Assembly: GCA_012060505.1 (NCBI GenBank)
Contig: GCA_012060505.1_3027.1
DNA length: 20,833 bases
Source: a phage
Strand: one strand, 5' to 3'
Numbering within the stretch: position 1 is the first letter of the stretch; each line of letters begins with the position of its first letter. Positions 3,220-19,850 of the stretch are shown one piece after another. The position numbers and the translations under genes were made by a program. The notes under the pieces are model-generated. The model was not told the DNA's origin. It ran no database searches and was given only the letters and a program-made list of their open reading frames with translations.

Positions 3220-3585
3220 TTAAATATCAAATTCGTTAAGAACTACATCAAAGATTGCTTCAAGATGCTCAGGTTTAGCTCTGTTACTCAGAATATGACG
3301 AATCCAAGTTTTAACCAAAAGCTTGCGATTATCACCATTCCAGCAAGGATGAGTCCCTAAATCGCGTTGACGAAAATCATCATCTAAAGCGATTTTAAAA
3401 TTTGAACCTTCCATTGTGATTGAAACCGTGATGCCATTTTCAAATCGCATATAAACGTAGTTAGGAGTCATATACTGTTCAATTTCGCATACTGATCCAT
3501 TTTGATGTTTCCAAAGGCAAATAGTATCAATAGAACCTGCAATACCATTAGAAACATATTTACGTTCAAAGTTGATGTAGTTCAT
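3220..3585 (-). CDS. Hypothetical protein, 121 aa (position of T4 30.7)
   Basis: ORF track; ATG preceded by GGAG; early-type promoter immediately upstream. Confidence 0.6.
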   Translation of the reverse strand: MNYINFERKYVSNGIAGSIDTICLWKHQNGSVCEIEQYMTPNYVYMRFENGITVSITMEGSNFKIALDDDFRQRDLGTHPCWNGDNRKLLVKTWIRHILSNRAKPEHLEAIFDVVLNEFDI

Positions 3586-3611
3586 TTTTGTTCTCCGAGA
3601 TGTTTAATTGC

Positions 3612-3651
3612 GGTACAGGTATATAATATCATATCCTGTACCAAAGTAAAC
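3612..3651 (-). promoter_or_regulatory. T4 early-type promoter upstream of the 30.7-like ORF, with the -10 inside an 8-bp inverted repeat
   Basis: Minus strand aaaataattGTTTAC-17 nt-TGaTATTAT; inverted repeat GGTACAGG...CCTGTACC flanks the -10. Confidence 0.6.
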
Positions 3652-3653
3652 AA

Positions 3654-3986
3654 TTATTTTACTACTTTCCAGTGCTTCATGTCAAGTTTACCAACTTTTT
3701 TCATCTTCTCAATCAAACGTTCGGCGCGTTGGCGAGCTGTAACATAATACCATTCACCTAATTCATTTTGTTCAATTTTTCCAACGATTACTGTATTCAA
3801 TTCATAAATCCAACCAGTAAAGAAATTATGAACTTGAATTGTAAAGGTGAAATCTGTTCCCATACCTTCTGTTGTTTCTACTTCAATAATATCACCTTCA
3901 ACTGCCATTAAGAACCACATAGTTTCGTTATATTCACCATTGAAGCATTTAGCTTTAACTGCAGCGTTCAGATTAATCGTTTTCAT
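3654..3986 (-). CDS. Hypothetical protein, 110 aa (position of T4 30.8)
   Basis: ORF track; ATG preceded by AAGGAG; lies just downstream of a terminator plus promoter. Confidence 0.6.
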   Translation of the reverse strand: MKTINLNAAVKAKCFNGEYNETMWFLMAVEGDIIEVETTEGMGTDFTFTIQVHNFFTGWIYELNTVIVGKIEQNELGEWYYVTARQRAERLIEKMKKVGKLDMKHWKVVK

Positions 3987-4011
3987 TTTATTCTCCTTTG
4001 TTTGTGTAAGA

Positions 4012-4044
4012 TAATACTATCACAAAGGAACCATACTGTAAACA
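4012..4044 (-). promoter_or_regulatory. T4 early-type promoter upstream of the 30.8-like ORF
   Basis: Minus strand GTTTAC-18 nt-TGaTAGTAT, just after the terminator; inverted repeat CCTTTGT...ACAAAGG reaches into the Shine-Dalgarno. Confidence 0.45.
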
Positions 4045-4057
4045 ACTTTATGCAATC

Positions 4058-4085
4058 TTTGGAAAATAAAAAAGGACTCCCGAAG
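4058..4085 (-). terminator. Intrinsic terminator downstream of the 30.9-like ORF
   Basis: Minus strand reads GGACTCC-ttcg-GGAGTCC (UUCG loop) followed by TTTTTTTATTTT. Confidence 0.8.
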
Positions 4086-4096
4086 GAGTCCTCAAC

Positions 4097-6433: not shown

Positions 6434-6768
6434 TTCATAATCACCAGATAAGCAGATTTAGCAGTTTCAACACGATAAATTTCGTGACGAAGTTTAGTTA
6501 TACTTTTAATAACAGAACTAATTATATTCTGCCCATCTTTAAAGCGGTTTTTCTTGTCAATAAAAATTGCGCCAACCATCTTTTTGTGAAGCTCAACTGG
6601 ATACTTCGTCACAATAATAGCATCATATACAGAAGGATGAATACTATTTACTAGAGTGTCATTCATTAAAGTTATTCTAATGAACTGTGCTGTTTCAGAG
6701 TCAAGCGCTCTATGATCGCCAGTATCATTTTCAAGACAATTATCAATTATATCAGTTAAATTCATCAT
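6430..6768 (-). CDS. Hypothetical protein, 112 aa (position of T4 cd.1)
   Basis: ORF track; tandem ATG ATG start; ATGA overlaps. Confidence 0.55.
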   Translation of the reverse strand: MMNLTDIIDNCLENDTGDHRALDSETAQFIRITLMNDTLVNSIHPSVYDAIIVTKYPVELHKKMVGAIFIDKKNRFKDGQNIISSVIKSITKLRHEIYRVETAKSAYLVIMK

Positions 6769-7004
6769 AGTACGCCATACACCCTTTGTGCTTCAACTAA
6801 TCCATCAAAATCTAATTTAAGATGCGATATTTGATCGCCATCACCTGGATTCACAATTACTAATACTGAACGAGGAGTTTCGGTAATAACACGAACCGAT
6901 GTTTCAGGAAATCGTTCAGAAACCTTATTTACTAATTCCTGCGCAAATAGTTTAACTTTTTCTTGGAATTCTTTAACAGTAATTGGTTTTTCACTTAGCA
7001 GCAT
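6765..7004 (-). CDS. Hypothetical protein, 79 aa (position of T4 cd.2)
   Basis: ORF track; ATG preceded by GAGGAAA; early-type promoter upstream. Confidence 0.55.
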   Translation of the reverse strand: MLLSEKPITVKEFQEKVKLFAQELVNKVSERFPETSVRVITETPRSVLVIVNPGDGDQISHLKLDFDGLVEAQRVYGVL

Positions 7005-7025
7005 TTTGTTTTCCTCATTTGTTTG

Positions 7026-7064
7026 GTAGAGCTATAATATCACAACTCTACCGTAAAGTAAACT
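7026..7064 (-). promoter_or_regulatory. T4 early-type promoter upstream of the cd.2-like ORF, with the -10 inside a 7-bp inverted repeat
   Basis: Minus strand GTTTAC-18 nt-TGaTATTAT; inverted repeat GGTAGAG...CTCTACC flanks the -10. Confidence 0.6.
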
Positions 7065-10310: not shown

Positions 10311-10368
10311 AAGTCCTCATGTTATGTCAGTAAGACTACTATAACACAACATGAGGGACTTGTAAACA
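10311..10368 (-). promoter_or_regulatory. T4 early-type promoter upstream of alc, inside a 13-bp inverted repeat that includes the alc Shine-Dalgarno
   Basis: Minus strand GTTTAC-AAGTCCCTCATGTT-gtgtTATAGTagtcttactgacat-AACATGAGGACTT-t-ATG; 13/14 arm match with one bulged C. Confidence 0.6.
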
Positions 10369-17307: not shown

Positions 17308-18130
<823 letters not shown>

Positions 18131-18134
<4 letters not shown>

Positions 18135-18490
18135 ATTATCTCCCATTGAAAAGAGTCATGAGCATATCCGCTAGCGTCAATCATTTTAACTAAAGTTACC
18201 ATTCCTCTGTTAACTGCTTGCGCGATTTCATCAAAAACTTCGTCACTATCATCGTAAAGATCATTAAAAAGTTCTAACACGTTCTTCTGAACTTTTAATT
18301 TACGGCCGACAATTTCGCCTACAGTAAATTCGTTTCCGCCAAATCCAGCGTAAAATGTAATTACACCCATTAACTGGCTTTCACGAGAATCTATGTCGTG
18401 TGATAAATTAATAAAAGCCGTCCCAGGCGCGGTTTTAAGTTGGCAACGAATTTTTACTTGGGTAATTCCAGTTATATGAATGTTAGACAT
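18131..18490 (-). CDS. Hypothetical protein, 119 aa
   Basis: ORF track; ATG preceded by GAGGAAA. Confidence 0.55.
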
Positions 18491-18765: not shown

Positions 18766-18802
18766 AGGGTAATAGTATCACACTACTACCCTGTTGTAAA
18801 CA
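18766..18802 (-). promoter_or_regulatory. T4 early-type promoter upstream of the three-ORF cassette 17889-18743
   Basis: Minus strand aaaaataattGTTTAC-18 nt-TGaTACTAT; inverted repeat AGGGTA...TACCCT flanks the -10. Confidence 0.6.
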
Positions 18803-18803
18803 A

Positions 18804-19064
18804 TTATTTTTGAATTTTATCGAGCCACTTACCAAGCTTAATCATTTCTTTAGTAGCCTTTTCCATACTTCTGAACTTAACCAATAGAGGATAGGTATCG
18901 ACACCCATAACTAAATTGGTTGCAAGACTGTGTTCACCCACAAGCCATAACGAATACGTTTGAATATCGAGTCCGTAATTTCTGTCTTTATGGACCCGTA
19001 CACCCATCACTTCAAATTTCTCACTAGCTTTTTCTACCGCATCCAGGAAATCATCTTTAGTCAT
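18804..19064 (-). CDS. Hypothetical protein (frd.1-like by position); longer alternative start at 19106
   Basis: ORF track 18804..19106; start at 19106 would overlap the upstream ORF by about 41 nt with no Shine-Dalgarno, whereas the in-frame ATG at 19064 follows the upstream TAA. Confidence 0.45.
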   Translation of the reverse strand: MTKDDFLDAVEKASEKFEVMGVRVHKDRNYGLDIQTYSLWLVGEHSLATNLVMGVDTYPLLVKFRSMEKATKEMIKLGKWLDKIQK

Positions 19065-19065
19065 A

Positions 19066-19452
19066 TTAGGCCTTAAAAGTTTTTCGCAAAAGTTCAATGA
19101 TTTCATCTACATTGTTTTCATCAACAATGCAGTGAATTTTTGTTACGCCAGAAACTATACCTTCATTAGCGGATTGAGGCTTTTCTAAAGTTACCTCAGT
19201 AAAGTATTTGAATTCTTCAGAGTAAATCTCAAAATACGTCTCAAGTGGGCCACCCGCCATGTATTCAGTGCCGTCTTCCATAGTTACACGTACCACACAG
19301 TCACCAGCACAATCATCACTTTCCATTTCATCTACAACAAAACTAGGTCCGTGCTTCTCTATTAAATTTAGCATCATTACATTGCAACGGCACTCGTTAG
19401 CAAAGTCATTTTTAAATAAAGGGTTAATGATATAAGTTTTTCCAACTTCCAC
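19066..19452 (-). CDS. Hypothetical protein, 128 aa (frd.2-like by position); apparent GTG start
   Basis: ORF track; start codon reads GTG with GAGGAAA 7 nt upstream; a GC hairpin lies just upstream. Confidence 0.5.
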   Translation of the reverse strand: MEVGKTYIINPLFKNDFANECRCNVMMLNLIEKHGPSFVVDEMESDDCAGDCVVRVTMEDGTEYMAGGPLETYFEIYSEEFKYFTEVTLEKPQSANEGIVSGVTKIHCIVDENNVDEIIELLRKTFKA

Positions 19453-19767: not shown

Positions 19768-19801
19768 TGTATAGTACCATAAAGCCTTATGTTTGTAAAC
19801 C
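19768..19801 (-). promoter_or_regulatory. T4 early-type promoter just downstream of the gene 32 terminator, upstream of the frd.3-like ORF
   Basis: Minus strand GTTTAC-18 nt-TGgTACTAT, followed about 40 nt later by GAGGA and ATG. Confidence 0.55.
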
Positions 19802-19810
19802 GTTTTGTGA

Positions 19811-19850
19811 AAAAATTTTTGAAATAAAAAAGGGGACCTCTAGGGTCCCC
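19811..19850 (-). terminator. Intrinsic terminator downstream of gene 32
   Basis: Minus strand reads GGGGACC-ctaga-GGTCCCC followed by TTTTTTTATTTC, 20-25 nt after the gene 32 stop. Confidence 0.8.

Follow-up and report, generated by a model that had tools for sequence, protein, structure and literature searches.

The inverted repeats that enclose the -10 element of three early promoters in the window (the whole 20,833-nt stretch of phage DNA analysed here) are, taken as a whole, probably best explained by a PeSL-type promoter/stem-loop element that acts in read-through RNA. Each of the three sites would be a composite in which a sigma-70 early promoter is laid over an intercistronic stem-loop, and such elements would occupy 60-70 nt between two small early genes. 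Free spacer positions of the promoter would provide the 5' arm, the stretch between the end of the -10 and about +5 the 3' arm, and TGn/-10 the apex. The hairpin would form in read-through RNA initiated at promoters upstream; the transcript of the nested promoter itself would start inside the 3' arm and be without it. We infer the biochemical role, the active RNA species and the position of the transcription start; the last was assumed from the usual sigma-70 spacing, ~7 nt after the -10. T4-type phages overlay signals densely, one 50-nt stretch here acting as promoter at the DNA level and as stem-loop at the RNA level, so that two mRNA populations over one gene can behave differently.

Three early promoters and their hairpins

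The window represents an early region of T4-like (Tequatrovirus) type, and all its genes are on the minus strand. It is collinear with T4 from gene 30.x to gene 32, and Tequatroviruses of the RB51, wV7 and KMB42 type are 97-98% identical to it. The pattern GTTTAC-N16-19-TAnnnT has six matches, all on the minus strand, versus 0.98 expected, and the six are orthologues of T4 early promoters. GTTTAC-N17/18-TAnnAT accompanied by TGn is present at sites 1, 2, and 3, in keeping with sigma-70-type early promoters whose -35 and -10 are about 17 nt apart. Promoters of T4 were defined by pattern, because its records NC_000866 and AF158101 annotate none. For this, T4 sequence was assembled from four loci and 41 strict minus-strand matches were taken, six of which fall within coding sequence or run antisense to a gene. 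Counts of stem apices and G.U pairs are based on the 35 promoters left after these six were dropped, and Shine-Dalgarno (SD) accessibility on 34. The segment from -38 to +26 of each T4 promoter was used in RNA folding; an ambiguous N at ~70346 of NC_000866, in the 5' arm of the hairpin of the promoter upstream of e.7, was folded as A. A search of the window with Rfam 15 gave no match at the gathering threshold, and viral contigs scanned with a profile yielded the 14 loci also obtained with the single-protein query.

Site 1 (3623-3651, minus strand) lies between the homologues of 30.8 (3654-3986) and 30.7 (3220-3585), and the T4 promoter at 129918 is identical to it. GTTTAC (3651-3646) is followed by a 17-nt spacer and TATTAT (3628-3623). 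The 5' arm GGTACAGG (3635-3642, minus strand) is located in the spacer, at -26 to -19, and the 3' arm CCTGTACC (3612-3619, minus strand) at -3 to +5, with the expected transcription start inside it. The arms form a perfect 8-bp repeat, and the 15-nt loop between them holds TGATATTAT. The full hairpin predicted in read-through RNA (3601-3652, minus strand) is an irregular stem of ~22 bp with -20.1 kcal/mol that extends over the entire promoter, from the -35 as far as about +18 (z -4.3; 0 of 200 shuffles are as stable). In this fold GUUUA of the -35 is paired with a downstream UAAAC, the 8-bp arms are paired with each other, and at the apex the last 3 nt of the -10 are paired with the TGn region, leaving the loop AUAU. 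The SD sequence GGAG of the 30.7 homologue (3593-3596, minus strand) is outside the hairpin. Synteny around site 1 is kept in all relatives seen, including five distant phages described below. Among close relatives the arms are invariant while the flanks diverge: the 5' arm is unchanged in 10 distinct orthologous sequences, and in the 3' arm one orthologue carries a C to T change that turns a pair into G.U.

Site 2 (7008-7063, minus strand; T4 equivalent 133331) is positioned between the cd.3 and cd.2 homologues, with GTTTAC at 7063-7058 and TATTAT at 7039-7034. Its arms, GGTAGAG (7052-7046) and CTCTACC (7031-7025), are separated by a 14-nt loop. The sense fold reaches -18.1 kcal/mol (z -5.0) versus -9.6 kcal/mol (z -1.5) for the antisense, and the stem is lengthened by G.U pairs that are possible on the sense strand only. 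Site 3 (18766-18801, minus strand; T4 equivalent 146143) precedes the frd.1 homologue, with GTTTAC at 18801-18796 and TACTAT at 18777-18772. Here the arms AGGGTA (18792-18787) and TACCCT (18771-18766) enclose a 15-nt loop, and a 12-bp stem over 18792-18766, in which the -10 hexamer is paired with the spacer, gives -15.2 kcal/mol; the antisense fold of this site is slightly better (-16.4 kcal/mol). All three inverted repeats reported in the earlier note are thus present to within 1 nt; at site 2, where the 3' arm ends at 7025, its coordinates are off by one.

Several observations concern the surroundings of site 2. Its promoter and hairpin are missing in four of five related IMG/VR contigs, in which a different coding sequence directly precedes cd.2 (window 6765-7063). 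This gene-content difference falls exactly on the PeSL-type element. In the T4 record, a misc_feature at 133300-133313 (window 7032-7045) is described as [quoted passage not shown]. These 14 nt correspond exactly to the loop that the site 2 arms enclose. An earlier report must therefore have had the loop in flipped orientation, through either a hairpin sequencing artefact or a real inversion variant. In addition, the annotation of T4 cd.2 begins at a GTG (133261), with an SD-preceded ATG 10 nt upstream (133261-133271), and the window ORF begins at the corresponding ATG (7004), giving 79 aa versus 76 aa in T4. An insertion/deletion or a mis-annotated start may account for the discrepancy.

Site 3 is flanked by insertions and deletions between the window and T4. 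Three small ORFs (85, 119, and 100 aa; 17889-18490 and 18804-19106) that T4 does not have are found around frd.1. The window is without the td and nrdB introns, mobE, nrdB.1, and the I-Tev genes, and its td (286 aa) and nrdB (392 aa) are uninterrupted. Two IMG/VR relatives (~300-370) have, between the site 3 promoter and frd.1, an unannotated hydrophobic ORF of 22 codons (MFAPYIMAAVMLVCLYLLIKAC) with its own SD. The T4 sequence (~146010-146110) matches it over the compared part, ~30 nt past the -10. This ORF is not in the window, where the promoter directly precedes frd.1.

Strand asymmetry was assessed on the T4 early promoters. Their mean minimum free energy is -13.4 kcal/mol on the sense strand versus -10.3 kcal/mol on the antisense (Wilcoxon p=1.2e-4). 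When perfect seeds were extended in a strand-neutral manner, the transition mismatches in stems comprised 16 of the G.U type (sense) versus 3 of the A.C type (p=0.004). This excess is still significant with a null of 0.55 that allows for base composition, although strand-biased C to T mutation, rather than selection, could partly contribute to it. The G.U pairs of the sense strand and the stability of the sense fold point to an RNA hairpin in transcripts coming from upstream, and the structure is most likely selected as a single-stranded, sense-strand hairpin; that this hairpin belongs to the non-template DNA strand would be a less likely reading.

Relation to published elements and to recombination

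The earlier note knew of no description of the layout. It is of the published PeSL kind and not new, as PeSL cassettes have been reported in RB49/phi1 (Arbiol et al. 2010, PMC2839356) and in T4/PST (Comeau et al. 2014, PMC4122927). In RB49/phi1, the commonest layouts include stems “overlapping the -10 box” as well as stems in the interval from -35 to -10, and one RB49 stem-loop cut expression of downstream lacZ about as much as rrnB T1 (PMC2839356). The T4/PST cassettes combine the promoter TTTACW-N17-TAYWAT with variable stems (PMC4122927). [quoted passage not shown] At all three sites of the window the stem-loop is within or over the promoter, in an AT-rich intergenic position, with a stop codon upstream of it and an SD/ATG downstream. 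Differences are that RB49/phi1 stems are rich in G-runs and C-runs, with one terminator-like, whereas those of the window are mixed in sequence and have no U-tract, and any effect they have on expression is putative.

A promoter nested in a hairpin has also been described for the T4 late genes e, soc, 49, and I-TevI (PMC3014915, PMC2988022). As in these genes, and in segB and mobE, the promoter lies inside the DNA of the 5' part of the hairpin, long transcripts fold, and the nested transcript is devoid of the 5' arm; this last feature would be shared by sites 1-3 if transcription starts where expected. These T4 promoters are late (or middle) ones hiding the SD/AUG, whereas sites 1-3 are early and their SD is accessible. 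Intercistronic stabiliser hairpins are also known from bacterial polycistronic mRNAs, e.g. as REP elements. They resemble our sites in being U-tract-less hairpins located 3' of a cistron, which could block 3' exonucleases after cleavage downstream, and differ from them in that the window stems share no sequence family; a role of this type at sites 1-3 is putative. Cleavage of GGAG in the next SD is performed by the T4 RegB nuclease (PMC3014915).

Intrinsic (Rho-independent) terminators are similar to sites 1-3 in having a stem-loop directly after a stop codon, and a canonical one precedes the promoter in roomier intergenic regions. Sites 1-3 differ from them by larger loops and bulges and by the lack of a T/U-run. 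No U-tract follows the stems of sites 1, 2, and 3, where the sequences are GCAAUUAAAC, AAACAAAUGAGG, and AUCAACUACUGAGG, respectively, and the terminator scan omits all three, which makes canonical intrinsic termination unlikely; intrinsic terminators were accordingly rejected as an explanation of these sites. A literature search found no map of T4 3' ends or terminators. Beside early promoters of the window, the scan detected a minus-strand stem with a T-run only at 4093-4072 and 19850-19832, in both cases just upstream of a promoter that has room upstream and no stem enclosing the -10. The first (4072-4093, minus strand) is a canonical intrinsic terminator with a UUCG loop followed by a T-run, and together with the promoter at 4043 it represents the “separate” form of terminator-promoter pairing. 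The second (19850-19832) is the terminator of gene 32 and precedes an early promoter without a hairpin (19800-19771; whole region 19771-19850, minus strand).

The stop codons of the 30.8 and cd.3 homologues are followed 2 nt later by the -35, and the SD/ATG is within about 35 nt. In T4, the median distance from the upstream stop codon is 2.5 nt for hairpin-overlapped promoters versus 46 nt for the hairpin-less ones (p=0.024). This suggests one scheme, a stem-loop and then a promoter, compressed into an overlap where space is short. The -10 may be placed in the loop simply because the hairpin has to be accommodated in very little intergenic room, where only the spacer and the start region are free to supply arms.

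The promoter at 19771-19800 belongs to a near-identical early-promoter cassette of ~60 nt, aaaaattttttcacaaaacg-GTTTAC...TACTAT-acaactatcaactactgatac, represented by at least six copies in T4 (167086, 163673, 146875, 70696, 55384, 27080) and by this one in the window. The copies form no hairpin over the -10, and several come after terminators or long gaps. With its long A/T-rich upstream tract, the cassette constitutes a large part of the hairpin-less promoters of T4. A further observation concerns T4 ndd.4. Only ~7 nt separate its annotated ATG (166749-166764) from the expected transcription start, and this ATG overlaps a GGAGG located ahead of another in-frame ATG, 15 nt downstream. Probably, the annotation places the start too far upstream.

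The kinship with PeSLs raises the alternative that stem-loop and conserved promoter serve mainly as a recombination signal, for homologous or targeted cassette shuffling through PeSL mini-circles, with any RNA role secondary. We regard this as unlikely. It would accord with the mini-circles and the crossovers within PeSLs found in RB49/phi1 (PMC2839356), with the position of PeSLs beside insertions and deletions in T4/PST (PMC4122927), with the absence of the site 2 promoter from four of five related contigs, in which cd.2 follows another gene, with the gene-content differences between the window and T4 that flank site 3, and with the near-identical repeated cassettes that make up several T4 early promoters. 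However, shared promoter sequence suffices for such exchange and an inverted repeat is not needed; the variable arms are the least shared part of the element; and the sense-strand G.U asymmetry and the compensatory change indicate selection on folding. Recombination and RNA roles are compatible and do not exclude each other.

Shine-Dalgarno accessibility and the putative role in read-through RNA

As elements acting in read-through RNA, the hairpins of sites 1-3 would most likely be intercistronic punctuation that has no U-tract and leaves the ribosome-binding site open. They may attenuate read-through transcription and/or form a barrier to exonucleases and RNase E; such a barrier would protect the upstream cistron and hide AU-rich promoter sequence. 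For sites 1, 2, and 3, the SD in read-through RNA is predicted to be unpaired with probabilities of 0.72, 0.42, and 0.63, respectively; the T4 orthologues of sites 1 and 2 have values of 0.70 and 0.78. With the SD open, we favour the attenuator or RNA-barrier role for sites 1-3, for which the RB49 stem-loop that lowered lacZ expression (PMC2839356) provides indirect experimental support.

A different situation is predicted for two neighbouring promoters. In the early promoter upstream of alc (10311-10367, minus strand), the spacer pairs with the SD region in a fold of -27.7 kcal/mol (z -5.5), and the SD is unpaired with a probability of 0.03 in read-through RNA versus 0.77 in the promoter's own transcript. 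Upstream of the 30.8 homologue (3994-4043, minus strand), the spacer and the SD are linked by an 8-bp repeat, TCCTTTGT/ACAAAGGA, and the corresponding values are 0.03 and 0.78. At these two promoters the design would reach the SD, and translation would be gated by the promoter from which the mRNA originates. Together with the SD-hiding promoters of T4, they are the early-promoter counterpart of the device known from e, soc, 49, and I-TevI; SD/AUG sequestration in long transcripts is predicted here and is not seen at sites 1-3.

In T4, SD accessibility over the 34 promoters is 0.31 in read-through RNA versus 0.57 in own RNA (p=3e-4), and the difference between read-through RNA and a shuffled-upstream control over all promoters is not significant (p=0.10). 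The SD is hidden almost completely in read-through but not in own RNA in 12 of the 34. Predicted accessibility would accordingly divide early promoters into SD-hiding and SD-sparing ones, sites 1-3 being among the latter.

That the hairpins of sites 1-3 gate translation by hiding the SD, in the way predicted for 10367 and 4043, appears quite unlikely. The design is predicted to operate at those two promoters and at the 12 in T4, and the minimum-energy fold of site 2 has an outer helix between CUUUA, beside the -35, and UGAGG. Against it stand the SD values of the three sites and of the T4 orthologues of sites 1 and 2, and the stems of sites 1 and 3, which end 10-15 nt before the SD. With considerable doubt, the two classes could be seen as a genome-wide code, in which SD-hiding genes would be translated immediate-early from their own promoter and SD-exposing genes also from long delayed-early and middle transcripts. 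What retains interest is the function of U-tract-less, SD-sparing hairpins and the evidence for strand asymmetry; the sense-strand G.U bias and the split between SD-hiding and SD-sparing promoters provide testable handles.

Arm variation, the operator question and enrichment at the -10

The earlier note proposed that a GGTAnAG-type palindrome is shared by the three promoters as an operator or a processing signal. An RNA-level reading is compatible with the evidence, which speaks against a shared operator. What is conserved is complementarity, while the arms vary, as illustrated by the T4 examples GGTACAGG, GGTAGAG, AGGGTA, TGATGAGGTA, ATAGGCT, AATTGTGA, TCCTAGAATTGTGA, AGTTGACAAGATT, GACAAGACT, and GGGACC. 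The symmetry centre shifts relative to the -10 from promoter to promoter, orthologues swap arms, and neither promoters nor orthologues have a shared arm sequence at a fixed promoter position. The GGTA...TACC likeness is explained by a promoter subfamily sharing TACTAT-TACCCTATCAAC downstream of the -10, with the spacer as its complement.

Orthologous slots were compared by fold. Column-wise counting of covariation was set aside because the register of site 3 shifts by 1 nt and the arms of site 1 are invariant among close relatives. Orthologues of site 3 have three arm sets, and all of them fold (-14.7 to -19.3 kcal/mol); the arms in relatives are AGGGTAGTAG/CTATTACCCT, AGGCTATGGTA/TACTATAGCCT with the shifted register, and ATGGGGC/GGTCCCAT. 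The slot upstream of gp30.7 homologues was also followed into five distant phages with 45-56% protein identity: Moonvirus CF1, Gelderlandvirus S16, Karamvirus ZX13, Marfavirus PWKp18, and the unclassified Klebsiella phage Roth76. It contains a promoter (GTTTAC-N17/18-TATAGT or TATTAT) inside a hairpin (z -3.9 to -6.4) with unrelated arms. CF1, S16, and ZX13 share one sequence, so that the five phages amount to about three independent observations, which would be supportive and by themselves not decisive.

We consider it very unlikely that the palindrome, or a hairpin extruded from it around the -10, is bound at the DNA level by a phage or host protein that regulates the promoter, e.g. in early shut-off. 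In favour of such an operator or cruciform, the -10 is flanked by the repeats, the arms of the three window sites resemble each other, and the mechanism by which T4 early promoters are shut off is unexplained according to reviews, AsiA and ModA not being required (PMC2988021, PMC3014915). An operator would have been exciting because shut-off is unexplained, but the evidence argues against the palindrome as the missing one. Arm sequence and symmetry centre vary, and orthologues replace the arms altogether. The repeat is present in only about half of early promoters and is lacking in the cassette with the A/T-rich upstream tract, while reviews describe early shut-off as general. A G.U extension of the sense strand only is not expected for a duplex operator or a two-sided cruciform. 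Perfect arms of 6-8 bp with loops of 14-15 nt are also poor substrates for cruciform extrusion. It is extremely unlikely that, at some of the early promoters, a structure-specific factor aids early shut-off by targeting a cruciform or a hairpin formed by the non-template DNA strand.

Enrichment was examined in the window and in T4. Perfect inverted repeats of at least 8 bp with a 3-20 nt loop number 21 in the window versus 8.5 +/- 2.7 in dinucleotide shuffles, and a single 8-bp repeat by itself is not rare in this AT-rich DNA. For promoters, the -35 plus spacer was searched against the 30 nt after the -10 for the longest perfect repeat. In the cross-pair control, the left half of one promoter was combined with the right half of another, by which all position-specific consensus is kept. 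Five of the six strict GTTTAC-N17/18-TAnnnT promoters in the window have a repeat of at least 6 bp bridging the -10 (binomial P=1.7e-4, with the T4 cross-pair rate of 12.6% as null). Among the 41 T4 matches, repeats across the -10 reach at least 7 bp in 13 and at least 8 bp in 8, versus 2.3% and 0.5% in the control.

Apices of sense-strand stems of at least 8 bp in T4 accumulate in the 10-nt bin that has the -10 at its centre (13 versus ~1.6 expected), and those of Watson-Crick-only stems do so as well (7 versus ~0.3 expected); a minor cluster of apices is located 50-70 nt upstream. The fold has z below -2 in 19 of the 41 T4 early promoters, many between -4 and -6, with a single hairpin and the -10 at or near its apex. 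In the first 50 kb of RB69, to which that comparison was confined, 3 of 10 pattern matches have z below -2 and one more is borderline, numbers too few for statistics. Placement of repeats on early promoters is highly non-random and the enrichment is real. The suspicion of the earlier note that the layout exceeds chance is borne out, and on T4 the genome-wide enrichment surpasses the controls. Chance, or a by-product of the promoter consensus, has a practically negligible probability: an 8-bp repeat is common in the window and TGnTAnnAT is partly self-complementary with G.U pairs, but the consensus-keeping control yields 2.3% at 7 bp or more versus 32% observed, stem apices pile up at the -10, and orthologues keep the pairing with new sequence.

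The longest perfect inverted repeat of the window, 11 bp (GATTATGCAAT / 9 nt / ATTGCATAATC, 18068-18098), lies within a coding region, close to where the 85-aa ORF begins, and not at a promoter.
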